From contig OY761556.1 of NCBI GenBank assembly GCA_963664705.1, positions 6,016,001-6,080,000 of the forward strand: a stretch of 64,000 nt of DNA. Reading direction: 5' to 3'. Below are positions 1-19,777 of this stretch, one piece after another. The position numbers were made by a program, and so were the translations under genes. Numbering within the stretch: position 1 is the first letter of the stretch; each line of letters starts with the position of its first letter. A model generated the notes under the pieces. It saw only the letters and a program-made list of their open reading frames with translations. It was not told the DNA's origin and searched no databases. The stretch comes from Acidobacteriota bacterium (lineage in GTDB: Bacteria > Acidobacteriota > UBA6911).

Positions 1-483
1 GATGCCAATCCCGCCCATCACATGGATAGTCAGATTACCGGGATGATCACGGAAGGGGCCGCGATCGGCTCCGATCCGGCATTGCAGGCTTCCAAGGACA
101 ATCCGTTCAGGGCCTATGTGATAGGCAGTGCCTATCACCAGTTGTTGAATGCGGCCGGATTGTGCTCCCTCTATACGGTTGCGACCTCCCCGCCTCCTAT
201 CGCCGAACTGATTGAAGGGGCCTGTGGCTGGGATTTTGGGTGGGAAGCGGCCATGACCGCGGGCCGTCGAATTCTAACGCTGAGGCAGGCTTTCAATGCC
301 CGGGAGGGATTGACTCCAGACCAGTTTGAGTTGCCTAAACGTATTGCCTCCACCGCCAGAGTGAATTTTTCCGGTTTGAGAGACGGGTATTTTCAGGAGA
401 TGGGGTGGGACCTCAAATCGGGCAAACCTTCAAAACAGTCGCTCAATGAACTGGGCTTGTCCCAATTGACCTCGGATCTATAA
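1..483 (+). CDS. Aldehyde:ferredoxin oxidoreductase (AOR/WOR family), C-terminal part; 5' truncated by window edge
   Basis: Frame open from base 1; AFOR C-terminal motifs GLCSLY, GRRILTLRQAFNAREG, LPKRI, YFQEMGWD..GKP....L..LGL. Confidence 0.85.
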   Translation, partial: DANPAHHMDSQITGMITEGAAIGSDPALQASKDNPFRAYVIGSAYHQLLNAAGLCSLYTVATSPPPIAELIEGACGWDFGWEAAMTAGRRILTLRQAFNAREGLTPDQFELPKRIASTARVNFSGLRDGYFQEMGWDLKSGKPSKQSLNELGLSQLTSDL

Positions 484-566: not shown

Positions 567-2309
567 TTATCTCCACTTATCCACAGAAGCGCTGGAAAGA
601 TAGCCGAAATCGGCAGCCTGCCAGAAAAGATTCGTCCCGCCTCCGACCGAAAGGATATGGATGTTGGTCGGACGTGCAATCAGCGGAATCTTTTCCGTGC
701 GCGGAAGCTTCATCCACGATGCAAAGGGCTCGGCCCCCTGTCTGGCTGTGGGCAGAATGAAGTTTTGCACGCTGTAGTAATTATCCAGCCATTCGCCCAC
801 TGTCGTTGTGGTGTTCTTGAAAACGTAATCGATCAACTGCTCCTTGGAATTGAATCCTTCTCTTTCCTTGAGCTGCTTGATGATGGTTGGATCCAGCAGC
901 AGAGTTGCCGGAGAGAATGGGCTGATGAATTTCAGCCAGAACGGAATCTGTTCGGCAAAGGGCTTTCCAAAGCTTTGGTCCGGATGCGTTATTCCCCATC
1001 CGCCAAAAGTACTGACAACGCTTTCCTGCTTTTTAAAACCCTTCTGCACGTGATACGGGTTCCAACCTTCCGGAAGCTCCTCTTCATTTTCAGGCATGCA
1101 CAGGTTGTTATACATGAGGTTGTTGCCCTGGCTGCCCATGTATACCTGGCCGGGATGCGCCCCACCGTCGAGGTTAATAGACATTAGAGTCCAGGCTCTT
1201 CCAATGACGGAATTTGCCTGATTGAACGGACCGAGCGCGCCAATGCCGGCGTTCATCTTTATTTCGTTGCGGATTGGGCCGTTGACCACCACCATTCTGG
1301 CGAACGAGGTGGTGGAGGTGAACACGGACGGGACGCCGGTGGATGCCAAGGCCAGAATGACCGGGAAATGCTCCGGCTTTGCCCCGGCCATTACCGCGTT
1401 GACCGCAACCTGTTCGACGTTGTAGCTCCAGGCAGGGTGAGGCGAAGAAGCCTGCATTTTCCCTACCAGTTCGTCCGGCTTATGGCTTGTCCCCTTCAGC
1501 ATTTCAGCGACTCGAGCTTCGGTCGGCAGCACAATAGGAAGCCCGTCTGTCCATTCATTGTCAAGGAAGAGGCGGGTCAGGTTTTCGGGTGTATCAGGCT
1601 TGACCAGTCTGGGCGTGGGTTGCTCGATGAATCCCTTCTTACTGTCTTCCTCGCTCAGGGGTGTAATCAGGGCCGCGACGATTTCCTGCAAGACGGGTTT
1701 GCCCGTTACAGGGTCGTTCCCCTGCAGGTATTTCCGGCAGGTCTCTGCCGGTACTCCCGTAATCGGGTGCGGAACAAAAGTGAAGCGCTGATTAGGCATA
1801 CCGCGTTTGAAAGTGTAATTTTTAACAAGATCCTGGAAAACTCTTGTAACAACCGGGGCGGTAGGAACTCCAAGTTTTTCGAGTGTCAAACAATGGCCGA
1901 CGACCGACGGCGAGCATGAACTTCAATGCCCGACCCCCATGATGGTTCCGGCGCCCGCTGCCTTTATTTCGGCCCATAACTTTTGATCGTCATCAAAGTA
2001 TGTGCCCGCCTTGGTCCGCACAACGAAATTTGCTTTGGGATATTTTTCGCTAAGCAGCTTCTGCATTTCTGTAAAAAACTGGTGCGTGTCGGTGAATCCG
2101 ATATCGACGATGTAGATAGTTTTCCCGTCGAGGGAGGTAAACCGTGGGGCCATCGGGACTCTCGCGATTGGCGGCGGCTGTCCCATGGGATTCAACACGG
2201 TGATCTTGGGCTCCTGCGCCTGCAGAATCCCGAAGAACGCCGGGACGAAAAAGATGACTGCAAGGTATAAAGCAACCGTTTTCTTTCTCAACGTATTTCT
2301 CCTTACCAT
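567..2309 (-). CDS. UGSC-family (seleno)protein, ~580 aa, signal peptide, in-frame UGA (Sec129) in a UxxC motif
   Basis: ORFs 1923-2369 and 567-1889 are in frame and separated only by TGA at 1923-1925; read-through gives GVGH-U-SSCSPSVVGHCLTLEKLGVPTAPVVT; C-terminal WTDGLPIVLPTEARV and AVNAVMAGAKPE motifs; hydrophobic N-terminus ending LQA-QE. Confidence 0.8.
1893..1917 (-). promoter_or_regulatory. Candidate bacterial SECIS hairpin just 3' of the in-frame UGA
   Basis: mRNA after UGA reads AGUUC AUG CUC GCCG UCGGUCGU CGGC CAU; GCCG/CGGC and AUG/CAU pair, GGU in the loop at +18 to +20; the stem is short. Confidence 0.4.
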
Positions 2310-2523
2310 GAATCGGGCGGTGTTATGCCAGGGGGATACGTGCTTGCCGCAGCCGGCGGATCGCCACAAACCGATTCGGTTTTGCTGGCGATTCGATGCG
2401 GTTTTCCCCGTTCCCGTTTTTCTACTCTATCACCGGAAGACGCCGAATCAGGAACTTTTCTTGGATTCGCGTCGTATCACTACGATAGAATTTCAGGACG
2501 AAACCTTTGCCGGGGAGAGGAAA

Positions 2524-3507
2524 ATGAAACTGCGCAATGCTGCCGTGCTCTCGATTCTAGTGATTCTTGGGATTGCCTGTGTCGGTGCGGTCAGGGCCGT
2601 ATATACCGACGTGTCCGTGAAGGCCTCGGCCCCGGAATTTGCGGCCGGACTGAAGTTTATCCCATCGGACTATCAGTTTGTGTTCGGAGTCAATGTTCAG
2701 AAATTGGCGCAAAGCCGTACCTATTCCAGCTTCCGGCAGGCCAGCCCGGCCAACAAAGATCTCGCCCTCTTTACCGAGAAGACAGGACTGGACCCTGCGC
2801 GGGATATTTACTATCTCGTTGGAGGAGGGAATGGAAAGGAAAAGGCCTCAGGGATCCTGATCGCTTCAGGCGCATTTAATAAAGGTGCCATCATGAACTA
2901 TGCTCGGGCAAAATCGGCGGCAGTGGAACAGTCCTATGCCGGGACTTCCATCCTGGTGTTTGCCGATGCTCCCGGCAATTCCGTTCAAAAGGGGATTGCC
3001 TTCGTGGATGATCAGGAGATTGCCCTTGGAGATGTGGAATCTTTGAAGCTGGTTCTGGATATCAGAGGACAGGAGAACCGGAGCATCCTGAACAACCGGA
3101 CCATGATGTCTCTTGTAAGAAGTGTCGACGCGGACGAAATGTTCTGGTTTGCCGGGGATGCTTTTGGGCTGATCTCCAGCGCTCATTCCCCGGCTCCATT
3201 GGCCGCGCCGCTACAGACCGGCGGTTCCAACATCAAATACATTGTCGGCAGTCTTAATATCGGCGATGCTCTGACGGGAAAGGTCACCGCTACGGCCATT
3301 ACGCCGGAGCAGGCGACCAAGCTGGCCGATGCTGTGCGTGGACTGATTGCCCTGGGGCAGTTTAGCGGAGACAAGAATCCGGCTTTGCGGGGATTGCTCG
3401 GCGGAGTCACGGTGACCCAGAATTCCGACCAGGTCCGTCTGGATTTGAATGTGCCGGCCGATGTGCTGACGAAGATGGGCCAGCGGACTATGGAAAAGCT
3501 GCAGTAA
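2524..3507 (+). CDS. Exported hypothetical protein (DUF3352-like)
   Basis: ATG 2524 after GGAGAGG; N-terminal hydrophobic signal; FIPSD..FVFGVNV and LIALGQF motifs. Confidence 0.7.
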   Translation: MKLRNAAVLSILVILGIACVGAVRAVYTDVSVKASAPEFAAGLKFIPSDYQFVFGVNVQKLAQSRTYSSFRQASPANKDLALFTEKTGLDPARDIYYLVGGGNGKEKASGILIASGAFNKGAIMNYARAKSAAVEQSYAGTSILVFADAPGNSVQKGIAFVDDQEIALGDVESLKLVLDIRGQENRSILNNRTMMSLVRSVDADEMFWFAGDAFGLISSAHSPAPLAAPLQTGGSNIKYIVGSLNIGDALTGKVTATAITPEQATKLADAVRGLIALGQFSGDKNPALRGLLGGVTVTQNSDQVRLDLNVPADVLTKMGQRTMEKLQ

Positions 3508-5463: not shown

Positions 5464-6003
5464 CTAACAGCGGGAAGCGATCCAGCCGCTGCCGCACAGA
5501 GTAAAGCACTCTCCGCAGGCCCGGCATGAAAGCTCGGCGCCTTCGACAAGGGCCGGTTTCCGTTCGACGCCGCGTCCCTTGAAATAAATTTTGTTCTGCT
5601 TTTTGACGTCAGAGCAATACCGCAGACAAAGTCCGCAGAGACTGCAGTCGGTCATACCGGTTTTGAACCTTGATGAAGTAACGCCGTATTCCTCTGCATA
5701 CAACTGCCACGACGGCCAGAGAAGCTCGATGATCATTTTACGGATCTTTCTCACTTTTTCCGTACTGGTCTGGACCTTCAATCCCTCTTCCGCAGGATAG
5801 ACGCAGGATGCGACCAGTCTCTTCCGTCCCCACTTGGTTTCAATCTCAACCACGCACATGCGACATCCGCCGTAGTCTTCCAGCCTGTCGTCATGGCATA
5901 AGGTTGGAATCTTGATTCCCATCGATCTTGCTACCTGCAGGACGGTTTGACCTTCTTCTGCCTGAACTGCACGGCCATCGATTTCCAGATTTACTTTTTC
6001 CAT
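5464..6003 (-). CDS. Fe-S protein resembling the NuoG/HydA N-terminus ([2Fe-2S] + 2x[4Fe-4S]); no catalytic domain
   Basis: IPTLCH, GGCRMCVVE, VASC; CSLCGLCLRYC and CRACGECFTLC; ends at 179 aa; GAGGT SD. Confidence 0.88.
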   Translation of the reverse strand: MEKVNLEIDGRAVQAEEGQTVLQVARSMGIKIPTLCHDDRLEDYGGCRMCVVEIETKWGRKRLVASCVYPAEEGLKVQTSTEKVRKIRKMIIELLWPSWQLYAEEYGVTSSRFKTGMTDCSLCGLCLRYCSDVKKQNKIYFKGRGVERKPALVEGAELSCRACGECFTLCGSGWIASRC

Positions 6004-6013
6004 GGTGACCTCA

Positions 6014-7921
6014 CTACTTTGATGCGGGCGCTGCCGCTGGTTGTTGCTGCATTGAGTTTGCCGGCACTTTGATGACGGCCCTGCATTTTTCAGGACAGGC
6101 CGAGAAGCACGCGCCGCACTTGATGCACTTGGCCTGAATGACCGTGTAGACTTTGTCTTCCGATTTGTTGATGGCTGCCACCGGGCAATTGCGCAGGCAG
6201 GCTCCGCATTTCGAGCATTTTTCCTGATCGATGTCATAGGCAATCAGGGAGGCACAGACGCCCGCCGGGCAACGTTTTTGCCGGATGTGCTCGAGGTATT
6301 CCTCGCGGAAATACTTCAGCGTGCTGGCGACCGGGAACGGCGCGGATTGACCCAGGGCGCAGAGAGACGCGGCTTCCATGAACTCCGAGAGCTCTTCCAG
6401 GAGCTGCAAGTCCCCTTCCTCTCCCTGTCCGGAAGTGATCCGGTTCAGGATATTCAGCATCTGACGCGTACCCTCCCGGCAAGGGACGCATTTCCCGCAC
6501 GATTCATGGGCAAGGAAGTTGATGTAGTAGCGGGCGGTATCCACCATACAGGTGTCTTCGTCCATGACGATCATTCCGCCCGAACCCATCATCGAGCCGA
6601 CCTTGGTGAGCTCGTCGAAATCGACCGGCAGATCGAGAAGCGATTCGGGAATAACTCCACCGGAGGGACCACCGGTCTGCACCGCTTTGAATTTCTTCCC
6701 CTTCGGGATGCCGCCGCCGATCTTGAAGATGATATCGCGGAGCGAAATGCCCATCGGGACTTCGACCAGCCCGGTATTTCGCACTTTGCCGACCAAGGAA
6801 AAAATCTTGGTGCCCTTGCTTCCCTCGGTCCCCATTCCGCGGAACCATTCCGAGCCGTGATTAATGATGTGCGGAACATTGGCCCAGGTTTCCACATTAT
6901 TCAGACAGGATGGTTTTCCCCAGAGTCCCTTTTCCGATGTGTGGATGTATTTCGGACGAGGTTCCCCGACCTTGCCTTCGATGGCACTCATCAGAGCGCT
7001 CGATTCGCCGGAAACGAAGGCGCCCGCTCCGCGGTGAATTATCACATCAAAAGAAAATCCGGATCCGAGGATGTTCTTGCCCAGCAGTCCATATTCCCGG
7101 GCCTGGTCAAGCGCCATCTGCGCATGTTTGCGGGCAAGCGGGTATTCCTGGCGAACGTAGATGAACCCTTCGGAAGCTCCAATGGCATAGGCGCCGAGAA
7201 TGAGACCCTCAAGAACTCCGTGCGGGTTTCCTTCGAGCAGGCTGCGATCCATGTAGGCGCCCGGATCGCCTTCGTCCGCATTGACGATGACATACTTCGG
7301 TTCACCGTGGGCCTTCTTTGTGGTTTCCCACTTCCGACCGGCCGGGAATCCGCCACCACCGCGCCCACGCAGGTTGGCAGCCTTCACTTCGTTCAACACC
7401 GCTTCGGGCGTCATTCCGGATAGCGCTTTGGCTAAGGCCGAATATCCGCCGACTGCAATGTAATCGAGAATATTGGAGGCATCGATCTTCACGTTATTCT
7501 CGAGAAGCACGCGCTTCTGGTATTTGTAAAACGGAATTTCCTCCAGGTGAGTCAGGCGTTTTCCGCTGTCTTCATCAAGATACAGAAGCTTGTCAACGGA
7601 GCCGTTGCTGCCGGCCAGCTTGTCGACAATAGCGGGAATGTTTTTTTCCTGAGTGCCAACGTAGCAGACATCGGACGGCTGAATGACAACCAGGGGGCCG
7701 CGTTCACAGAAGCCGTGGCATCCCGTTCGGCGAACGCCTACTTTGTCGGAAAGGCCTCGTTGCCCAATTTCCTTTTCGAGCGATTCTGCAAGGGCTTCCG
7801 CTCCATAGGCCCGGCAGCCAGTGCCGGCGCAGACCGCCAGCCAGGTTTCCTTCGCGTTGCGCTTGGCGAGAATCTGATCTTTAAGTTTTGAAAGATCCGC
7901 AGGGGTTTCTATGCGAGACAT
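6014..7921 (-). CDS. nuoF: NuoF/HydB/BfuB-type FMN/NADH-binding subunit with N-terminal [2Fe-2S] and C-terminal 2x[4Fe-4S]
   Basis: CAGTGC..GCHGFC, LRGRGGGGFP, NADEGDPGAYMDR, GGPSGG, ESCGKCVPCREG, CSKCGACLRNCP, CIKCGACFSACP. Confidence 0.93.
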   Translation of the reverse strand: MSRIETPADLSKLKDQILAKRNAKETWLAVCAGTGCRAYGAEALAESLEKEIGQRGLSDKVGVRRTGCHGFCERGPLVVIQPSDVCYVGTQEKNIPAIVDKLAGSNGSVDKLLYLDEDSGKRLTHLEEIPFYKYQKRVLLENNVKIDASNILDYIAVGGYSALAKALSGMTPEAVLNEVKAANLRGRGGGGFPAGRKWETTKKAHGEPKYVIVNADEGDPGAYMDRSLLEGNPHGVLEGLILGAYAIGASEGFIYVRQEYPLARKHAQMALDQAREYGLLGKNILGSGFSFDVIIHRGAGAFVSGESSALMSAIEGKVGEPRPKYIHTSEKGLWGKPSCLNNVETWANVPHIINHGSEWFRGMGTEGSKGTKIFSLVGKVRNTGLVEVPMGISLRDIIFKIGGGIPKGKKFKAVQTGGPSGGVIPESLLDLPVDFDELTKVGSMMGSGGMIVMDEDTCMVDTARYYINFLAHESCGKCVPCREGTRQMLNILNRITSGQGEEGDLQLLEELSEFMEAASLCALGQSAPFPVASTLKYFREEYLEHIRQKRCPAGVCASLIAYDIDQEKCSKCGACLRNCPVAAINKSEDKVYTVIQAKCIKCGACFSACPEKCRAVIKVPANSMQQQPAAAPASK

Positions 7922-8982
7922 GCTTGCGCCTCCTCTTTCTGTAGTGTCTTGATGATTTTCTCGAGCTTGCTCCGTGAGGGATCTCGGTGATACTGCGAGT
8001 CGATCTGAACCACGGGAGCCAGGGCGCAGCAACCAATGCAATGGACTGTCTCGAGTGTGAATTCCTGTTTACTGTCAGTTTGACCGGCCTCGATTCCGAG
8101 CAGAGCGGAAATCCTGGTCAGCACTTCGGAGGCTCCGCGCACGTGGCAGGCCGTTCCAGTGCAGACCTGGACCGTATGCCGGCCGCGTGGTTCAAGGCTG
8201 AACGCCTCATAGAAGTTTGCCACGATATAAATCTCGCGAAGCGGAATGTTCAGCCGGCCGGAAATCCAGCTCAGAATGTGTCTCGGAAGCCAACGGAAGG
8301 TTTCCTGTACATCCAGGAGCACCTGAATCAGAGCATTCTTCTGGAAATCATATTTGCGCATGATTTCGTCGACTTTCAGCAGCTCCTCCCTGATATCCAG
8401 GATCGCCCGTTCCTTCTTTTTGATCTGGCCCAGGCTTTCCGCGTGGTACTTGGCCTCGCTTTCCAGGTAGGTGAGTTCATCGAGGAGTTGCCGTTTTTCA
8501 AGGCCAAGGGAGTATGCTTCCCCGAGAACATCCAGTCCCTGCAACAGCAGGTCGTATTTGTCGGACGGATGCGGCTGCGCGGGAGCCTGCATTTTTTTCG
8601 CTTCCCGGCGCAGGTTGCTGAGCCCAAGCGCCCGGCGCACGGTTTCAAGCAGCTTTTCCGCTTCAAACGGTTTGGTCAGGAAATCAAAAGCTCCCAGCTT
8701 CATGGATTCCACTGCGGAATCAACGGTCGCATTTCCAGTGACAACGACCGGGACCGCGGCCGGATCAATCCTGATGATTTCCGATATTGCTTCGAGCCCC
8801 GTCATCCCCTGCATTTTCAGGTCGAGGAGCACAACCCCCGGATGGGAGGACGCTACGGCTTGAATGCCTTGCTGTGCGTTTTTGGCGACAGAGGTACGGT
8901 AGCCGCCGGCTTCCAGTATCCGGCTGCACGTCTCCAGAAAATTTTCCTCGTCGTCAATAATAAGTACATCTATTGGGCGCAT
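7909..8982 (-). CDS. Response-regulator receiver domain fused to a NuoE/HydC-type [2Fe-2S] subunit
   Basis: REC: IIDDE, LLDLKM, VVTG, LTKPF; helical linker; NuoE: ALIQVLLDVQ..F.WLP, ANFYEAF, CTGTACHVRG, CIGCCALAP; overlaps the nuoF-like start. Confidence 0.9.
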   Translation of the reverse strand: MRPIDVLIIDDEENFLETCSRILEAGGYRTSVAKNAQQGIQAVASSHPGVVLLDLKMQGMTGLEAISEIIRIDPAAVPVVVTGNATVDSAVESMKLGAFDFLTKPFEAEKLLETVRRALGLSNLRREAKKMQAPAQPHPSDKYDLLLQGLDVLGEAYSLGLEKRQLLDELTYLESEAKYHAESLGQIKKKERAILDIREELLKVDEIMRKYDFQKNALIQVLLDVQETFRWLPRHILSWISGRLNIPLREIYIVANFYEAFSLEPRGRHTVQVCTGTACHVRGASEVLTRISALLGIEAGQTDSKQEFTLETVHCIGCCALAPVVQIDSQYHRDPSRSKLEKIIKTLQKEEAQACLA

Positions 8983-9107
8983 CGACGCCCCCTGAGTGGC
9001 TTCCATAGGCAACCTCTTGATAGCTGTTTGATTGCTTTTTTTGGCAGATAGCTTCCATCATCCAGGATACAACCGGATAGACATCACACTTTGCCGCAAA
9101 TGTGCTG

Positions 9108-10482: not shown

Positions 10483-13400
10483 ATGAGGAGATTTTTACTG
10501 GTAGCGATCCTTTTGGTGCTCGCTTCGGCTCCGGCTTTCAGCCAGTCGAATGCAACACTATATGGTGTCGTTGCCGACGCAACGCAGGCCGTATTGCCCG
10601 GAGTCACCGTCAAGGCGACGAATCTGGAAACGGGCATTGCGAAAACTGCGGTTACAAATGCAGCCGGCGTATACAACTTTGCGGGCATGCAGGTTGGCTC
10701 GTACGACGTTATGGCGGAGTTTACGGGTTTCCAGACCCAGACCTTCAAAGCCGTGAAACTGGGCAACAATGCTCAAGTCCGGTTGAATTTCTCGCTGGAA
10801 ATCAAAAAGCTGGAGCAGCAGGTCGAAGTCAACATCCAAGCCGATAATCTGACTTTGGATACGAGCGCTTCTTCCGGCTCCAAGCTGGACGAGAAGAAGG
10901 TTTCGGAACTCCCGGTCGTCAACAGCAACGTACTCAGCCTGATCAAGGTTATGGGTGGCGTCACCCTGACCGAGAGTCCGATTTTCGGAGCTGACGACAC
11001 ACAGTTTGCAGGCGTCAGCGCGGCTAACGTCAACCTGACCCGTGATGGCGTTACGGCGAATGACGTACGGTACAACACCGGATTGAACTCGCCCGTATAT
11101 CTGAACCCTGAAATGGTCGGCGAATTCAAGATGGTGCTGGCACCGGTCGATGCCGAGATGGGACGCGGCAATGGCCAGGTGTCGGTTGTAACCCGTTCGG
11201 GCGGCAATGCCTATCATGGCAGCCTCGTATGGAACAACCAGAACACCTTCCTCGATGCGAACGAATGGTATGAAAACAAAATCGGACGCGAGCGAGACTG
11301 GCGCAATCAGAACGAATACACGCTCAGCATCGGCGGACCGATAATCAAGAACAAGACGTTCTTCTTTGCTTCGTGGGATCACCAGTTCTCCGCGATCCGG
11401 CAGAACAACGTCAACCAGCAGGTGCCGACACCCTGCGCCCGCAAGGGCATCTTCCGCTATCTTACAAATGTGAGCGGTGGAAATGTTTTGACCAATCCAT
11501 CCGGCGATGGATCGACCTACAACCCGTATGTAACCGCAACCGTGAATGCGGATGGTTCGCCCCGAACGGATGTTATCGTTCCCGGAACCACGGCCGCGGC
11601 GGCTCTGAACCAGATCAGCGTTTTCGGCGCTCTGCTGAAGACGCCCAAAACCAACGACTGCTCCGACGTCACCGTGGATTCAGCCACCGGTTGGCCGACA
11701 GCCGATTGGGTTAATTATTCCGCACCCTATGATCCGCTGCGCACTCCGGATGCCACAGGGTATTACAAGCGGTTCCTGCCGATCATTCCGACGCCGAACA
11801 ACTACCAGGTCGGAGATGGCTTGAACTTCGGCGGCTACCGCTATGTCCGTCATCTGGACGGCGGCGACAACATCTACGGATTGGGCGAAGGTCCGAACCG
11901 GAGACAGATCAATTTCCGTATCGATCACAACTTTAATGCGATGCACCGCATCAGCGGCACCTACAGCTATGAGAAAGACAACGGCGAAGACAGCTTCCCG
12001 ACGTTGCCCTCCAATAGCTGGGGCGGCGCGCTGCTGCGCAATCCGCAAAGCTTTGTTATCAACCTGGTGTCGACTGTTCGGCCGACCCTGCTCAATGAAG
12101 CGCGTATAGGTCTCACACGCACCCAATCCCATACCTATGATCCGTACTACAACCCTAAGAACGGTGATGCTCTGAAGAATAAACTTCAGGAGCTCTTCCC
12201 GACTACCTCCGGGGTACCGGTCGTCATAGGACTTGGCGGCGTCGGATCCTATCCGGCCACCAGCAACATGTTTGCCATTGCCGGCGGTGTCAACGTCTGG
12301 GGCAGCGGCCGAGGAAACTTTGCCTCTACCTGGGGCGGCCATGACCCACGCTGGTCCTATGCCGATACCGTTACCTGGACAAAAGGCCGACATGCAATGA
12401 GGTTCGGCGCGGAGCATCAGAGAACGCAGTCGTATCAGGAAATGAGCGGCACCCTTTCCTTCACCACCGGTGCCAGTGGAATTCCGGCCGTACGCGGCGG
12501 AGCTCCGGTATACAGCGGGTTTGGCGCCAATTCGGGCCTTCACAATCCGTTCTTCCTCACTCCTACACTGCCGGGAATGGCGGGCGGTATGTATTGGGGC
12601 AACGTGTTGGGCGGCGCCTATACGCTCATGAACACGCTGGCCGGAAACATTACCGATGTTGACCAGTATCGTTTTGTCAACTCTCCGACCGCCACGGCGT
12701 ACAATGATCCGAGCAAGGGCGAGTTGATGCGCATCACCGATTACCGCGCCAACACGTTCAGCTTCTTCATGCAGGATGACTGGCGGGTAACCGACAGTTT
12801 CACTTTGAACCTTGGGATGCGCTATGACTGGTACGGTGTTCCGTACCTCAAAGGCGGCATGACCGCAGGGATCAAGGGCGGGGCTCTCAATGTTTTCGGT
12901 CGTTCCGGAAACAGCTTCGCGGACTGGATGCAGCCCGGAACCATGAACAGCAATGGTACCGTTACCTACAAGGGAACCGATGCCGTGCTGGCCTTCATTG
13001 GACCGGATTCCCCGAATCCGAATGAACAGGTCTACAACGACGATTACAACAACTTCGGCCCGGTGTTCGGTTTCGCCTGGCAGCTCCCCTGGTTCGGCAA
13101 AGGCAAAACCACGATCCGCGGCGGCTATCAGTTGAGCTACATGCCCGGTGGAAGAGCGGCTTCCGCTGCCTTCTCCATGCCGAAGATCGAGTATGTGACA
13201 GACTATAAGCCCAATTCGGCAATGCCGTATATCAACCTTTCGAACCTGTCTCAGTTGCTGCCGGTTGTACCGACTCCTTCGTACATCAAGCCGGTGGCGG
13301 CGGATCCGGTGGCCCCGGTGGCGCAGCGCTCGCAGGCGGTTACGGTATTTGATCCGAACATGCGTACGCCGTATGTTGAAAACCTCAACCTGTCGATCAC

Positions 13401-14808
13401 GCGCAACATCACATCCAACCTAATCCTGGATGTTCGCTACATCGGCACGCTGCAGCGCAAGAACACCAGCACCATCGACCTCAATTCCGCGAACATCTGG
13501 AACAACGGGTTGAAGGAAGCTTTTGATACCGCACGTGCCGGCGGCGAATCTGCTTTGCTGGACAAGATGTTTGCCGGTATCAATATCGCCGGATCCAACA
13601 ACGCCTTTTTCAACGGCTATGGACCGGTGGGAACCGTGTATAACGGTGTCCAGCAGACCGGCGCGATGCACCTCCGCGCCTTCAGCGGGACCAATGCCAA
13701 TCTTGCCAACGGCAATTACATTGCCTTGGCCCAGACGCTGGCAACGATGAACTACGATACAACCATCGTCGGCAACTCCGGATTGCCTGCCATCGGCACT
13801 GACACCAATGGCGCCGTACTCCGGTACAACAAATTCCCCGAGAACTTCATCTACACCAGCCCGCAGTTTTCCAGCGTAAGCTGGACTGGAAACCACAACA
13901 ATTCCAATTACCATTCGCTGCAGGCCCAAGTTACGATGCGTCCGACCCACGGGTTCAATCTCCAGGCTACCTATACCTGGAGCAAAAACCTCGGAGCGTT
14001 GGCCTACACCGATCCGCGAAACAGGGCATTGGATTACGGTCCAAACGGCATGGACCGCAACCACGCGCTGGCAATCAACGGCGGATTCGAGTTGCCTTTC
14101 GGACCGGGCAGGTGGCTGCTGAACGGCAAAAACGGAGTCGTATCCCGTATAGCCGGTGGATGGCAGATGAGCTGGATCGGCAACGTTTCCAGCGGCAGGC
14201 CGTACAGCATTACCACGTCGAATACGACGCTGTATGGGGCGACGGCTCCAAACCGCATCGGAACGTTTGAGCCGGGCAACAAGGGGAGTATTGTTTGGCC
14301 GAACGGCGCTTCAACCGGTAATTTCTACGCGAAAGCGGATGGAACAGCCAAGTACTCGCTGGTAGCCGATCCGCAATGCCAGAACGTCACCACCGCTCAG
14401 AACCTTCAGGGTTCGTGCACGCTTTGGGCTTTCGCTGAGAACGGCGATGCGTCCAAGTTGGTATTCGTGAATCCGTATCCGACCCAGCGCGGCAACTTCG
14501 CTCAGAATTCTCTGAGACAGCCCGCCATCTGGAGCGCGGATATGGCGATGTCCAAATCCATCAGAATCACAGAGGGTAAAACTCTCCAGATCCGCATGGA
14601 TGCGACCAACATCTTCAACCATGCACAGCCTTCGGCCGGTGCATTCCAGTCGGGCGTGGTCAGAACCAGAGTACCGGGCGCTCCCGCGGCTACGATGGGC
14701 TCCTACTTTGATTTCACCGATTTTTCTTTTGCTCAAAGGCCCCTGGGCTATGTGAGTTCGAAAGTCGGTTCGCGTACATTCCAGGCGAAGGTTCGGTTGG
14801 ACTTCTAA
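10483..14808 (+). CDS. Oar-type TonB-dependent receptor with carboxypeptidase-regulatory-like N-domain (paralog 1)
   Basis: Signal peptide; GVVADATQAVLPGVTV, VTRSGGNAYHGS, GGPIIKNKTFFF, QDDWRV..FTLNLG.RYD; C-terminal RLDF; AGGAGG SD. Confidence 0.93.
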   Translation: MRRFLLVAILLVLASAPAFSQSNATLYGVVADATQAVLPGVTVKATNLETGIAKTAVTNAAGVYNFAGMQVGSYDVMAEFTGFQTQTFKAVKLGNNAQVRLNFSLEIKKLEQQVEVNIQADNLTLDTSASSGSKLDEKKVSELPVVNSNVLSLIKVMGGVTLTESPIFGADDTQFAGVSAANVNLTRDGVTANDVRYNTGLNSPVYLNPEMVGEFKMVLAPVDAEMGRGNGQVSVVTRSGGNAYHGSLVWNNQNTFLDANEWYENKIGRERDWRNQNEYTLSIGGPIIKNKTFFFASWDHQFSAIRQNNVNQQVPTPCARKGIFRYLTNVSGGNVLTNPSGDGSTYNPYVTATVNADGSPRTDVIVPGTTAAAALNQISVFGALLKTPKTNDCSDVTVDSATGWPTADWVNYSAPYDPLRTPDATGYYKRFLPIIPTPNNYQVGDGLNFGGYRYVRHLDGGDNIYGLGEGPNRRQINFRIDHNFNAMHRISGTYSYEKDNGEDSFPTLPSNSWGGALLRNPQSFVINLVSTVRPTLLNEARIGLTRTQSHTYDPYYNPKNGDALKNKLQELFPTTSGVPVVIGLGGVGSYPATSNMFAIAGGVNVWGSGRGNFASTWGGHDPRWSYADTVTWTKGRHAMRFGAEHQRTQSYQEMSGTLSFTTGASGIPAVRGGAPVYSGFGANSGLHNPFFLTPTLPGMAGGMYWGNVLGGAYTLMNTLAGNITDVDQYRFVNSPTATAYNDPSKGELMRITDYRANTFSFFMQDDWRVTDSFTLNLGMRYDWYGVPYLKGGMTAGIKGGALNVFGRSGNSFADWMQPGTMNSNGTVTYKGTDAVLAFIGPDSPNPNEQVYNDDYNNFGPVFGFAWQLPWFGKGKTTIRGGYQLSYMPGGRAASAAFSMPKIEYVTDYKPNSAMPYINLSNLSQLLPVVPTPSYIKPVAADPVAPVAQRSQAVTVFDPNMRTPYVENLNLSITRNITSNLILDVRYIGTLQRKNTSTIDLNSANIWNNGLKEAFDTARAGGESALLDKMFAGINIAGSNNAFFNGYGPVGTVYNGVQQTGAMHLRAFSGTNANLANGNYIALAQTLATMNYDTTIVGNSGLPAIGTDTNGAVLRYNKFPENFIYTSPQFSSVSWTGNHNNSNYHSLQAQVTMRPTHGFNLQATYTWSKNLGALAYTDPRNRALDYGPNGMDRNHALAINGGFELPFGPGRWLLNGKNGVVSRIAGGWQMSWIGNVSSGRPYSITTSNTTLYGATAPNRIGTFEPGNKGSIVWPNGASTGNFYAKADGTAKYSLVADPQCQNVTTAQNLQGSCTLWAFAENGDASKLVFVNPYPTQRGNFAQNSLRQPAIWSADMAMSKSIRITEGKTLQIRMDATNIFNHAQPSAGAFQSGVVRTRVPGAPAATMGSYFDFTDFSFAQRPLGYVSSKVGSRTFQAKVRLDF

Positions 14809-15406: not shown

Positions 15407-18400
15407 ATGAGGAGATTATTACTGGTAGCGATTCTCTTGGCGCTCGTTTCGGCCCCGGCCTTCAGCCAGTCGAACGCAACGCTGTACGGGATCGTTGCCG
15501 ATGCAACGCAGGCAGTGCTGCCCGGCGTCACCGTGAAGGCGACGGATCTCGATACGGGCATCGTGAAAACTGCGGTCACCAATGCTGCCGGCGTTTACAA
15601 CTTTGCGGGCATGCAGGTTGGCTCGTACGATGTTTCGGCGGAGTTTACCGGTTTCCAGACCCAGACCTTCAAGTCTGTGAAACTGGGCAACAGTGCCCAG
15701 GTCCGGTTGAACTTCAGCCTTGAGATCAAAAAACTCGAACAGTCGGTTGAGGTAAATATTCAGGCGGATAATCTGGTTTTGGATACCGGCGCATCATCCG
15801 GATCAAAGCTGGATGAAAAGAAGGTGGCGGAGTTGCCGGTTGTAAACAGCAACGTGCTCAGCCTTATCAAGGTCATGGGCGGCGTCACAATGTCGGAAAA
15901 CCCGATCTTCGGTGCTGACGACACGCAGTTTGCCGGCATCAGCGCATCGAACATCAACCTGACGCGCGATGGTGTTTCAGCCAACGACGTTCGTTGGGCA
16001 ACGGGACTCAATTCCCCCGTGTACCTGAATCCCGAAATGGTCGGCGAATTTAAGATGGTTCTCGCCCCGGTCGATGCGGAAATGGGACGCGGCAATGGCC
16101 AGGTATCGGTTGTGACGCGGTCGGGCGGAAACGCCTACCACGGCAGCGCGGTCTGGAACAACCAAAACACCGCGCTCGATGCCAACCAGTTCGTGGATAA
16201 CAGAACAGGCCGTGTTCGTGATTGGCGCAACCAGAACGAATACACCATCAGCATCGGCGGACCGATCATCAAGAATAAAACGTTCTTCTTCGCATCTTGG
16301 GATCAGCAGTTCTCCATCATGAAACAGAACAGCACCGCCAACAACCTGTCCCCGACTCCGTGCGCCCGATTGGGGATCTGGCGTTATATGAGCAATATAA
16401 ATGGCACGAACATTACAGCGAATCCTGGCGGGACTGGAACGGTGCAAAGCCCGTATACCTCTCCGGTCACTGATGCCCAGGGCGTGCCTTTGACGACAAT
16501 CAATCTGCCGGGCGGCGCGACGATGCCGGGAACACTCAATTACATCAGTGTTTTCGGTAAACTGCTGAAGACTCCCCAGACGAACGACTGCTCGGATGTT
16601 GCGGTTGATTCCGCCACCGGGCTGCCCACCTCTGCCTGGGTCAACTACGGCGCTCCTTATGATCCTCTTCGGACGCCGGATGCCTCTGGGTACTTGAAGA
16701 GGTTTATGCCTTTGATCCCGAAACCGAACAATTACCTTATCGGCGATGGATTAAACTGGGGTGGATTCACATATGTTCGTAGGCTGAGCGGTGCGGATAA
16801 TGTTTACGGAATCGGCGAAGGACCGAACCGGAAACAGATCAACTTCCGTATCGACCACAACTTCAGCTCGAAGCACCGGATCAGCGGCACCTACAGCTAT
16901 GAAAAAGACAAAGCGATGGACGCGTTCGCATCCATGCCCACAAACAGCTGGGGAGGAGCCGTACTCCGAAGTCCGCAAAATTTTTCAGTTAACGTTACAT
17001 CGACGTTAAGACCAACACTGCTCAATGAAGTTCGCGTCGGGTTGACCCGTACGCAATCGAGCACCTATGACCCCTACTACAATCCTGAAAACGGCGATCA
17101 GCTGAAAAACAAGCTGCTCGAGCTGTATCCCAATGCCGCCAATCTACCAATCCTGGTCTCCATAGGCAACTTTGGCCTCGGGACCGGAAACGGTGCGACC
17201 AATGGTATGCACGTGTATGGCACCGGTCGTGGAAACCAGGCTGCGACCTGGGGCGGATATGATCCGCGCTGGGTGTATGCGGATACTCTGACCTGGACCC
17301 GCGGCAGACACTCCATGAAGTATGGAGCGGAGATGCAGCGAGTGCAGTCATTCCAGAATCAGCGGGGCGGAATTTCATTCACCACCGGTATGTGGTCGTA
17401 TCCGACTTTATACGGCGGCGCGTATGTTGCCCCGAGCGCCAGCGCCTTCGGAGCCAATTCCGGTCTTTCCGATGCAGCCGGCAACGCGAATTATACTGCG
17501 ATGCCGAACGTAGCGGGAAGTGCCACCTATGGAGCTGTGGTAACCGGTGCGTATCAATTGATGAACACGCTGGCGGGCAATATTACGACTGTCAACCAGT
17601 GGAGATTCGTGAACTCGCCGACGGCGACGACTTATAACGATATCTCCAAGGGCGAGGACATGCGATTCAGCGATGTCCGTGCCAACCAGATCAGCTTCTT
17701 CTTCCAGGATGACTGGAGAGTTACGGACAGCTTCACTCTTAACCTCGGTCTCCGCTACGACTGGTATGGCGTGCCGTACCTCAAAGGCGGTATGACGAAC
17801 GGAATCAAAGGAGGCGCCCTGGCTGCCTTCGGACGTTCCGGATCGAGTTTCGACGACTGGATGAAGCCCGGAACCATGAATGCGGACGGCTCCGTAACCT
17901 ACAAGGGAAAAGACGCCGAACTGGCCTTCATCGGACCGGATTCCCCGAATCCTGATCAGCAGCTTTACAATGACGACTGGAACAACTTCGGTCCCGTGTT
18001 TGGATTTTCGTGGCAGGTGCCGTGGTTCGGAAAAGGGAAAACCACTCTTCGCGGCGGCTATCAGATGAGCTACATGCCTCCGGGAAGACTGGCCGCGGCT
18101 ACAGTCAGCGCGCCAAAAATCGAATCCACGATTACCTACTCTCCGAATGCAAATATGCCGTACATTAATCTGAGTAATGTTTCTCAGATTAGTCCCACCT
18201 GGCCGATTCTGACGGTGACGGCCGGCGTTAAGCCGGTTGCCGCTGATCCGGTTTTCCCCGTTACTCAGCGGACACTGGGGATTACGGTGTATGATCCGAG
18301 CATCGTTGTTCCATATGTTCACAACCTGAACATGTCCATTACGCGCAACATCACTCCAAACATCATGCTGGATATCCGCTACATTGGAACCTTGCAGCGG

Positions 18401-19777
18401 AAGGGACAGTCGGGAGTCAACCTCAACGCCGCCAATATCTGGAATAACGGATTGAAGGAAGCTTTCGACGCGGCGCGAGCCGGCGGCGAATCAGCGTTGC
18501 TGGACAAGATTTTCAAGGGCATCAATATCGCCAATTCTGGATCCGCAAACGCGCCAGTCGGCACGTACAATTCGGCTGGTGTGTACCAAACAGGTGCGAT
18601 GCATTTGCGCGCTTCCAGTTCTTTCTATGCCAACCTTGCCAACGGCAACTACATTGGTCTTGCCAATACGCTGGCAACGTTGAACTACAACACCACCCGG
18701 CCAGGCAATTCCGGTCTGCCGGCTATCGATACCAACGCCGTGACTGGATCGGTTCTTCGTTATAACAACTTCCCCGAGAACTTCATCTACACCAGTCCGC
18801 AGTTCTCGAGTGTAACGTTGAATGGGAACAACACCCATTCCAACTACCACTCCCTGCAGACGCAGGTCACGATCCGGCCGACCCATGGCTTCAACCTCCA
18901 GGCGACACATACCTGGGCGAAGAACCTTGGGAATTTGGCTGTAACCGATCCTCGAAACAGAGCGCTCGATTATGGTCCGAACGGGCAGGATCGCCCGCAT
19001 GCGTTTACCGTCAACGGTGCTTTCGAGCTTCCGTTTGGGCCGGGACGCTGGCTGCTGAACGGCAAAAACGGGATCATTTCCCGCATTGCCGGTGGCTGGC
19101 AGATGAGCTGGATCGGCAACATTTATGCCGGCAACCCGTTCACGCTGACGGCTTCGACTACCCAGTTGTATGGCGCCGCGGTGCCGAACCAGGTCGGCGA
19201 GTTCGACCGCAATTCAGGCAAAGTTGTCTGGCCGAAGGGTTCCTACAGCGGCAGCTATTTCTTTGATGAAAAAACGCAGGCGGCGAAATATACGCTTGTG
19301 AAGGATCCCCAGTGCAGCAACGTTACAACGGCACAGGGCCTGAATAATCAATGTACGTTGTATTCGTTCGTTGATGCCAGCACCCTGGTCAATGGTGCGG
19401 CCACAGCGGATACCAAGTACATCTTTGTCAACCCGTACCCGGGAGAGCGCGGCAATTTCCAGCAGAACTCGCTGAGACGGCCGGGCACCTGGAGTGCGGA
19501 TATGGCGATGAGCAAATCCATCCGGATCACTGAAGGCAAAACCCTGCAGATCCGCATGGATGGCACGAACATCTTCAACCACGCGAACCCCTCCGGCTCT
19601 TCTGCAGCCTCCGGTGTGAGCGGTCGTATTTTTGTTCCAAGTGCTCCGGCTGCCGTGATGGGCAATTACACAGGAACCGGGGAGACTATTTTTACAGCTT
19701 CACGCCGCCCCTTGGGTTATGTTGATTCCAAAGTCGGCGCCCGTACGTTCCAAGTCAAGATGCGACTCGATTTCTAA
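15407..19777 (+). CDS. Oar-type TonB-dependent receptor (paralog 2)
   Basis: Same architecture as 10483-14808; first ~290 aa nearly identical; C-terminal RLDF. Confidence 0.93.
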   Translation: MRRLLLVAILLALVSAPAFSQSNATLYGIVADATQAVLPGVTVKATDLDTGIVKTAVTNAAGVYNFAGMQVGSYDVSAEFTGFQTQTFKSVKLGNSAQVRLNFSLEIKKLEQSVEVNIQADNLVLDTGASSGSKLDEKKVAELPVVNSNVLSLIKVMGGVTMSENPIFGADDTQFAGISASNINLTRDGVSANDVRWATGLNSPVYLNPEMVGEFKMVLAPVDAEMGRGNGQVSVVTRSGGNAYHGSAVWNNQNTALDANQFVDNRTGRVRDWRNQNEYTISIGGPIIKNKTFFFASWDQQFSIMKQNSTANNLSPTPCARLGIWRYMSNINGTNITANPGGTGTVQSPYTSPVTDAQGVPLTTINLPGGATMPGTLNYISVFGKLLKTPQTNDCSDVAVDSATGLPTSAWVNYGAPYDPLRTPDASGYLKRFMPLIPKPNNYLIGDGLNWGGFTYVRRLSGADNVYGIGEGPNRKQINFRIDHNFSSKHRISGTYSYEKDKAMDAFASMPTNSWGGAVLRSPQNFSVNVTSTLRPTLLNEVRVGLTRTQSSTYDPYYNPENGDQLKNKLLELYPNAANLPILVSIGNFGLGTGNGATNGMHVYGTGRGNQAATWGGYDPRWVYADTLTWTRGRHSMKYGAEMQRVQSFQNQRGGISFTTGMWSYPTLYGGAYVAPSASAFGANSGLSDAAGNANYTAMPNVAGSATYGAVVTGAYQLMNTLAGNITTVNQWRFVNSPTATTYNDISKGEDMRFSDVRANQISFFFQDDWRVTDSFTLNLGLRYDWYGVPYLKGGMTNGIKGGALAAFGRSGSSFDDWMKPGTMNADGSVTYKGKDAELAFIGPDSPNPDQQLYNDDWNNFGPVFGFSWQVPWFGKGKTTLRGGYQMSYMPPGRLAAATVSAPKIESTITYSPNANMPYINLSNVSQISPTWPILTVTAGVKPVAADPVFPVTQRTLGITVYDPSIVVPYVHNLNMSITRNITPNIMLDIRYIGTLQRKGQSGVNLNAANIWNNGLKEAFDAARAGGESALLDKIFKGINIANSGSANAPVGTYNSAGVYQTGAMHLRASSSFYANLANGNYIGLANTLATLNYNTTRPGNSGLPAIDTNAVTGSVLRYNNFPENFIYTSPQFSSVTLNGNNTHSNYHSLQTQVTIRPTHGFNLQATHTWAKNLGNLAVTDPRNRALDYGPNGQDRPHAFTVNGAFELPFGPGRWLLNGKNGIISRIAGGWQMSWIGNIYAGNPFTLTASTTQLYGAAVPNQVGEFDRNSGKVVWPKGSYSGSYFFDEKTQAAKYTLVKDPQCSNVTTAQGLNNQCTLYSFVDASTLVNGAATADTKYIFVNPYPGERGNFQQNSLRRPGTWSADMAMSKSIRITEGKTLQIRMDGTNIFNHANPSGSSAASGVSGRIFVPSAPAAVMGNYTGTGETIFTASRRPLGYVDSKVGARTFQVKMRLDF

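Follow-up and report, generated by a model that had tools for sequence, protein, structure and literature searches.

A UGA-containing gene for a very probable exported selenoprotein of the UGSC/Unknown_1 kind and its multiplication in one acidobacterial genus

The window analysed here is a stretch of 64,000 nucleotides from an Acidobacteriota bacterium (GTDB lineage UBA6911; assembly GCA_963664705.1, contig OY761556.1, positions 6,016,001 to 6,080,000 of the forward strand), and our subject is the gene at 567-2309, which is interrupted by an in-frame TGA. Very probably, this genuinely UGA-containing gene encodes a selenoprotein that belongs to the published UGSC/Unknown_1 kind and is a variant predicted to be exported. 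The reading that we favor, with a probability of about 60%, is that 567-2309 is one gene whose UGA is decoded as selenocysteine (Sec), and that the product of about 575-580 residues is exported and likely acts as a periplasmic selenol/thiol redox enzyme. UGSC selenoproteins and their fusion to the conserved domain Unknown_1 have been known since 2008; what seems to be new is the expansion of the exported form, the fold assignments, the thioredoxin reductase (TrxR)-like partner of its cytoplasmic relatives and a C-terminal domain without a match.

All gene coordinates refer to the minus strand unless marked (+), and residues are numbered from the ATG at 2309. The listing of open reading frames (ORFs) contains two that share one frame, 1923..2369 (148 aa), which ends with IMGVGH and the TGA, and 567..1889 (440 aa), which begins with a TTG. 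When the TGA is read as U, the translation of 567-2309 has 580 residues and only one recoded codon, U129, in the sequence IMGVGH-U-SSC-SPSVVGHCLTLEKLG; the junction peptide is GVGH-U-SSC-SPSVVGHC. An earlier note, made from the letters of the window, had proposed that TGA 1923-1925 joins the two ORFs into a single frame, with a U-x-x-C motif at the junction, and the recoded translation confirmed both: the TGA (1925-1923) and the TGC for Cys (1916-1914) give U129-S-S-C132. The real start is more likely the TTG at 2291-2289 than the ATG, because AAGGAG lies 7 nt upstream of it and it matches the GTG start of an orthologue (L016); the Sec would then be residue 123.

The 'UGSC-containing protein' was described as a major selenoprotein family with 255 Sec and 21 Cys forms and a UxxC motif, for which a thioredoxin-like fold was supposed and a fusion to the conserved domain Unknown_1 reported (Zhang and Gladyshev 2008, PMC2398784). 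A census of >5200 genomes in 2016 gave 33 UGSC genes in 26 organisms (PMC5029168), and a review of 2026 still has UGSC proteins as largely uncharacterised (PMC13188914). The statement of the earlier note that these proteins carry Sec or Cys and have no established function agrees with the accounts of the family in PMC2398784 and PMC13188914. In the window protein, residues 38-193 match positions 2-157 of the 172 positions of PF24696 (UGSC), straight through the UGA, with 99.6 bits against a cut-off of 25 (E 2.9e-28). Because this match runs across the UGA, a stop there would cut the UGSC domain in two, and separate initiation of the two halves, which the earlier note had considered, is argued against by the same match. 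The joining of the two ORFs is beyond chance, since a curated domain model aligns through the UGA and since the in-frame TGA is present in 149 of the 150 matches listed from the genus, where all 24 other genomes have 11-36 matches each. The best 120 of 7862 database homologues (E <= 0.001) are all 386-446 aa long, as expected when gene callers begin at the first start after the UGA. Because each gene is cut in this way, the UGSC-fusion family is invisible in standard annotation.

A comparison across phyla gave the same picture of the Sec column. With one genome per species, 603 relatives with the shared architecture were found, and the column was read in the best 80 of them: TGA is present in 63 (56 by pattern, 7 by eye), Cys in 13 and Leu in 3, and one was unreadable. 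This agrees with the UGA or Cys that the earlier note had expected in homologues. The alternation of TGA and Cys is the pattern that would be expected for a catalytic selenocysteine. The 13 Cys forms are mostly from Alphaproteobacteria; altogether, the relatives come from Thermodesulfobacteriota, Acidobacteriota, Chloroflexota, Rokubacteria, Binatia, Latescibacterota, Actinomycetota, Bacillota, Alpha-, Beta- and Gammaproteobacteria and one Nitrosocosmicus bin. The fused subfamily most often has U-S-[ST]-C, hence the USSC of the window protein, previously taken for a variant motif, is no special variant.

Within its own genome, a tblastn search with the protein found 35 loci, 31 of which have exactly one in-frame TGA, in the same column and as part of a U-x-x-C. 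The motifs are diverse: U-G-S-C, U-S-S-C, U-S-T-C, U-S-V-C, U-S-L-C and U-S-Q-C occur besides U-D-G-C, U-D-S-C, U-W-G-C, U-P-G-C and U-H-G-C. Four loci are stop-free, one with Leu (GQ-L-DTC), one without Sec or Cys (PSSS) and two divergent. The Leu forms (GQ-L-DTC or GQ-L-DTN; G000:C1:2728377-2730218 (-) and loci L080, L084 and L086) have no signal peptide and are kept in other Acidobacteriota and in bins labelled Deltaproteobacteria; they may represent a redox-altered branch of the family.

The genome (6.89 Mb) has a complete Sec machinery. All four genes named in the earlier note, selA, selB, selC and selD, were found, and two of each: two tRNA-Sec, two SelA, two SelB and two SelD, each with a score beyond its curated cut-off. 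Both tRNA-Sec genes score 70.6 bits and are called tRNA-SeC with the anticodon UCA by ARAGORN, and one of the two SelD genes itself has an in-frame TGA. As a side observation, selB, selA, selD and a tRNA-Sec are clustered at G000:C1:3072623-3078305, and the second set is dispersed (2046792, 3461774, 3657373 and 6559014). The two complete Sec-insertion sets are divergent, with 41% identity between the SelA proteins and tRNA-Sec genes that differ in their stems (82% column identity), and two selA genes are present in only 5 of the 30 genus genomes searched. The clustered selD match (G000:C1:3076698-3077621) lies within an open frame of 572 residues, the model having 311 positions; this may be a fusion protein.

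The earlier note had also pointed to a GGU-loop hairpin 3' of the UGA. Such a hairpin is indeed present at 1911-1896, 11 nt after the UGA, with five pairs, one U.U mismatch and a GGUC loop, but its stability, judged by energy alone, is not above chance: z is -0.43 against dinucleotide shuffles (76 nt) and -0.04 against synonymous-codon shuffles. Across the 31 paralogues, synonymous-codon shuffles gave a mean z of -0.94, with 11 values under -1.64. The support for the hairpin is comparative, not energetic. Among 20 genus sequences with 71-84% identity at the protein level, 13 have exactly the same 17-nt core, GCCGUCGGUCGUCGGCC, and two others have G-C in place of the U.U. In the cross-phylum set, 44 Sec forms with GH/GL-U-S[ST]C have a stem with a GGUC loop at a fixed distance and a mean minimum free energy of -12.9 kcal/mol per 33 nt, whereas 13 Cys forms with a near-identical peptide have no such stem (mean -7.7 kcal/mol); the Mann-Whitney p of 4e-5 for this difference is overstated because the relatives are not independent. 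In the alignment of 47 Sec forms, 5 of 8 stem pairs vary on both sides, and the covariation score of 0.216 (shuffled mean 0.119) was reached in none of 500 shuffles, the best slid control being 0.179. Five paralogues of the GD-U-GSC-TKF/Y type (G000:C1 1683892, 1726784, 2672499, 3015265 and 6772844) have no hairpin in the equivalent 33 nt (z of -0.63 to +1.18); their selenocysteine insertion sequence (SECIS) may lie elsewhere.

In the N-terminus, MVRRNTLRKKTVALYLAVIFFVPAFFGILQA/QEP, a basic stretch is followed by some 20 hydrophobic residues and then by LQA/QE, as judged by eye and by a hydrophobicity scan, so that the n-, h- and c-regions of the signal peptide claimed previously could be seen by inspection. 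The conserved domain starts right after this putative signal, cytoplasmic relatives start at the same point, and the structural model has a low-confidence N-terminal helix at residues 2-25. Among the 31 Sec paralogues, inspection revealed 27 signals for the Sec translocon and one Tat-like signal (SRRSFLK); two paralogues have none and one has no recognisable start. The protein is predicted to be exported.

An AlphaFold2 model built on an alignment of 30 paralogues (predicted local distance difference test, pLDDT, 90.8; predicted template modelling score, pTM, 0.88) places U129 between a strand (121-127) and a helix (132-145). A Foldseek search of the PDB with the whole model gave no match at E <= 0.001. 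For residues 58-222, the 50 matches listed by VIA-align are mostly flavodoxin-, CheY-, TIR- and Rossmann-like (Z 8.5-10.8), with 8s7v_H (Z 10.8, root-mean-square deviation 4.1, 137 aligned) and 7te2_A (Z 10.2, root-mean-square deviation 2.4, 113 aligned) on top and many others at Z 8.5-9.8; none of these 50 matches to the predicted model is titled thioredoxin. Such an arrangement is common. The UGSC domain therefore looks flavodoxin-like rather than thioredoxin-like in the model, which apparently is new, and the resemblance to thioredoxin would lie in the U-x-x-C at a helix N-terminus, not in the fold. Hence, of the exported, thioredoxin-like selenoenzyme of the earlier note, the export is supported by inspection, and the thioredoxin-like fold is not what the model shows, its best matches being flavodoxin-, CheY- and Rossmann-like chains.

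The fusion to a large conserved C-terminal domain, likewise proposed before, is borne out by the paralogue alignment and by the 603 relatives, and was published already in 2008. The block AVNGVMAGC.PEYMP...NG of Unknown_1 in Figure S1A of that paper lines up by eye with AVNAVMAGAKPEHFP...VVVNGP of the window protein. Invariant residues of this domain are D255, P262, T263, S332, G344, G370, R371 and E409. Modelled alone, it reached a pLDDT of 88.6 and a pTM of 0.90. No family was found with it in Pfam and NCBIfam at E <= 10, a profile of 30 paralogues gave no match among PDB sequences at E <= 1, and a wide VIA search had a best Z of 5.4 and no chain at Z >= 8, which does not prove that the fold is new. 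Class I fumarate hydratase was the best Foldseek row and was rejected as a match (E 0.028, probability 0.15); there was none at E <= 0.001.

Only a single acidobacterial genus was found to have the gene in multiplied form. Of 150 other Acidobacteriota genomes, sampled evenly, only 11 have matches at E <= 1e-20, one or two in each, mostly to the C-terminal domain and without a TGA. A thirty-fold expansion of this kind seems to be new; the literature on UGSC proteins, on selenoproteins of Acidobacteria and on exported or expanded bacterial selenoproteins yielded no account of it. In a FastTree phylogeny of 98 sequences the paralogues are scattered over at least 10 places among relatives that come from other Acidobacteriota and from Thermodesulfobacteriota, some being recent duplicates, and the window protein is sister to two proteins from Thermodesulfobacteriota (support 100). 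Forms without signal peptide make up a clade of their own with 43 members, none of them from this genome. With SelD added, the genome has at least 32 selenoprotein genes, 31 of them from one family. A genome-wide scan for open frames in which a GGU-loop hairpin comes after a TGA was rejected as a count of the selenoproteome; it recovered 7 of the 31 family members.

The neighbourhoods of the relatives offer a redox partner. A TrxR-like flavoprotein of about 310 residues is encoded in the flanks of 29 of the 80 cross-phylum loci, and in 20 of the 80 its gene, by the coordinates, directly abuts the fusion gene on the same strand. This association with the cytoplasmic relatives, read from gene order, seems to be new. 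The four TrxR-like proteins tested against TIGR01292 (thioredoxin-disulfide reductase) all scored 262-319 bits, below the cut-off of 343, and the C-A-S-C motif has both of its Cys in all 22 sequences aligned. Rhizobium puerariae has, one after the other, an AMP-binding enzyme, the Cys-form fusion protein and the TrxR-like gene, the last overlapping the stop of the fusion; on Neorhizobium chromids the fusion is present and annotated as 'hypothetical protein'. Recurrent neighbours at the 80 loci are ABC ATPases (17), TctC (8), amidohydrolases (7) and other solute-binding proteins, and SelA, SelB or SelD each adjoin the fusion gene in 4-5 of them. At the proteobacterial loci L125, L130 and L131 a gene for SelB, SelA or a SelD-like (AIRS) protein lies within a few kb of the UGSC fusion, and the fusion protein may be one main reason why these genomes keep the Sec trait. 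In the genome of the window, 12 of the 35 paralogues lie no more than 6 kb from one of the roughly 36 OMP_b-brl_4 genes, where coordinate arithmetic gives about 3 by chance; the barrel genes were counted by a Pfam search, a tblastn with a single protein having undercounted them (10 loci).

Based on these data, the following course of events appears plausible. Sec would be inserted by SelB, bound to the hairpin at 1911-1896, and the signal peptide would lead the unfolded chain through the Sec translocon. U129 and C132, flanked by a strand and a helix N-terminus within the flavodoxin-like domain, would then cycle between selenolate/thiol and selenenylsulfide, and the C-terminal domain of 357 residues with its invariant D, T, S, R and E would be the substrate-binding part. 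In the cytoplasmic relatives, electrons would flow from NAD(P)H to the TrxR-like C-A-S-C protein, then to U/C-x-x-C and finally to the substrate. Since the neighbouring TrxR-like flavoprotein would feed U/C-x-x-C, the family most likely catalyses the two-electron reduction of a small substrate.

Several points weigh against a selenol/thiol redox enzyme of this kind. The hairpin of the window gene is weak in itself, by its U.U mismatch and both z values. On NF041046, the equivalog model of the UGSC family (seleno)protein, the protein reaches 77.1 bits and not the cut-off of 125; by its profile scores, it is a domain-level relative and no equivalog of the short stand-alone UGSC proteins. The TrxR-like gene is present in none of the 35 paralogue neighbourhoods of this genome, and since NAD(P)H is absent from the periplasm, the reductase cycle is a loan from another clade, the cytoplasmic one. 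Family and structure searches with the C-terminal domain gave no functional lead, and the Cys of Unknown_1 (MAGC) is Ala in the window protein (MAGA), as in most of the 73 relatives readable at this position (Ala 67, Cys 6). Selenium insertion, expression and location of the protein are predictions, and a search for sequencing runs listed none of RNA.

The absence of an NAD(P)H-linked partner near any paralogue in this genome, the U-x-x-C at a helix N-terminus and the predicted export would also suit an exported protein-thiol/selenol-disulfide oxidoreductase that works in the manner of Dsb proteins or thioredoxin and uses the C-terminal domain as client-binding module. We consider this improbable: the modelled fold is flavodoxin-like, the relatives are found in catabolic and transport neighbourhoods (solute-binding proteins, amidohydrolases, AMP-binding enzymes), and 31 diverged copies suit many substrates better than one housekeeping role. 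Slightly less credible still is a periplasmic carrier of metal, metalloid or sulfur/selenium that would hold its cargo with the Sec/Cys pair and pass on material imported by the barrels without redox turnover. The enrichment of paralogues near OMP_b-brl_4 genes and published selenoproteins that have Cys/Sec metal sites and are encoded beside transporters speak for such a carrier; nevertheless, the nearest barrel gene of the window gene is about 8.8 kb away, the paralogue alignment has no conserved set of His/Cys ligands besides U and C, and the TrxR-like neighbour of the cytoplasmic relatives indicates redox cycling. That the UGA is a true stop, giving a secreted fragment of 128 residues and a separate protein of 440 residues from the TTG at 1889, or a pseudogene, is what standard gene calling yields and what a weak hairpin would allow, but it is very improbable given a UGSC domain cut mid-way, a TGA kept in 31 paralogues and 63 of 80 distant relatives where it alternates only with Cys (13) or Leu (3), and a complete Sec machinery.

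Returning to the exported selenol/thiol redox enzyme, it is tempting to speculate on its role in the genus, although what follows is tentative and rather doubtful as a whole. The genus may have a periplasmic arsenal of about 30 exported UGSC fusions per genome, each combining a flavodoxin-like U-x-x-C domain with a catalytic domain of a fold unseen in solved structures, that act on varied compounds entering via TonB-dependent-like barrels and receive electrons from a periplasmic donor rather than by the NAD(P)H/TrxR-like route. The roughly thirty-fold multiplication of the exported form in one genus implies many substrates and a heavy investment in selenium. If the arsenal exists, the genome with its at least 32 selenoprotein genes comes near the highest number in print, at least 46 (deep-Sep paper, PMC12013277), and this in a phylum for which a survey of 2006 counted 4 selenoprotein genes (Acidobacteria, PMC1794560). 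UGSC proteins are among the most abundant selenoproteins of aquatic metagenomes (255 Sec forms, Global Ocean Sampling, PMC2398784). Besides this multiplication, two further handles make the family testable: the UGSC module is fused or coupled to a conserved domain without known fold, and the cytoplasmic forms bring their own TrxR-like gene, with Cys forms in cultivable rhizobia that allow easy genetics and enzyme assays.

Table 1 Features of the UGA-containing gene in the window
Feature	Position	Strand	Basis or remark
Whole gene, first in-frame ATG to TAA stop (567-569)	567..2309	-	580 codons, one UGA
Likelier start codon TTG, product M-RKKTVALYL...	2289..2291	-	Upstream AAGGAG and alignment with GTG start of orthologue L016
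Shine-Dalgarno-like AAGGAG	2299..2304	-	Read from sequence; 7 nt upstream of TTG 2291
Predicted Sec-type signal peptide: basic n-region, hydrophobic core, LQA before QEP	2217..2309	-	By eye
UGSC-family domain, residues 38-193, modelled as flavodoxin-like alpha/beta	1731..2198	-	PF24696; structural model
In-frame UGA, predicted selenocysteine codon U129	1923..1925	-	Translation; genus, paralogue and cross-phylum comparison
TGC, putative resolving Cys C132 of U-S-S-C	1914..1916	-	U129 and C132 in 29/30 aligned paralogues
SECIS-like hairpin GCCGUC-GGUC-GUCGGC	1896..1911	-	Comparative support; own stability unremarkable
C-terminal domain 'Unknown_1', residues 224-580 (357 residues)	570..1640	-	Block of the 2008 paper and paralogue alignment

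The surroundings of the gene in the window hold further genes of note. The C-terminus of an aldehyde:ferredoxin oxidoreductase (AOR) at 1-483 (+) converges on the selenoprotein gene; AOR genes are near 7 of the 35 paralogues, the window gene included, and at 19 orthologous loci there are 5 full and 2 edge matches. A divergent ORF at 2185-3507 (+), in which a signal-peptide-like stretch, MKLRNAAVLSILVILGIACVGAVRA, comes after an internal Met, belongs to no Pfam family and is kept beside the orthologue in 3 of the 19 loci only. A run of redox genes at 5464-9012 (-) encodes a 2Fe-2S/4Fe-4S protein, a NuoF-like FMN/4Fe-4S subunit and a response-regulator receiver fused to a thioredoxin-like 2Fe-2S ferredoxin domain. 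Further on, 10483-14808 (+) and 15407-19777 (+) encode outer-membrane proteins of 1441 and 1456 aa with CarboxypepD_reg and OMP_b-brl_4, the class enriched near paralogues elsewhere in the genome. At gathering thresholds, Rfam had no match in the entire window.

In GrdB of glycine/sarcosine/betaine reductase and PrdB of D-proline reductase, a selenenylsulfide is re-reduced via a TrxR-type flavoprotein. The window protein would work similarly, as a U-x-x-C selenoprotein recharged by a flavoprotein of the TrxR type, and PrdB is listed as UxxC in the table of PMC2398784. The difference is that the exported copies in this genome have no TrxR-like neighbour. The GrdB/PrdB family is absent among the Pfam matches of either half at E up to 10, a search in which the filters of HMMER drop most weak matches.

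With the UGSC family (PF24696; NF041046) the window protein shares a domain match above the Pfam cut-off and the U-x-x-C at the same place; it differs in that it adds a predicted signal peptide and a domain of 357 residues and scores below the cut-off of NF041046, and the fold supposed to be thioredoxin-like in PMC2398784 is flavodoxin-like in our model. A close precedent is the UGSC/Unknown_1 fusion from the Global Ocean Sampling data (PMC2398784, section 9 and Figure S1A), which has the same two-module architecture. That paper marks a conserved Cys where the window protein has Ala, and its account of the fusion mentions neither a signal peptide nor an expansion of paralogues nor a partner gene. 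In haloarchaea, the same modules are found in the same order in a pair annotated as 'UGSC family (seleno)protein' and 'hypothetical protein' (Natrinema zhouii plasmid NZ_CP084884.1), which is 28.5% identical to the window protein over 90% of the query; here, however, they are two genes with an overlap of 4 nt, and the annotated UGSC gene is without an in-frame stop. Since UGSC and Unknown_1 are fused in bacteria and encoded by separate but overlapping genes in haloarchaea, the two modules belong together.

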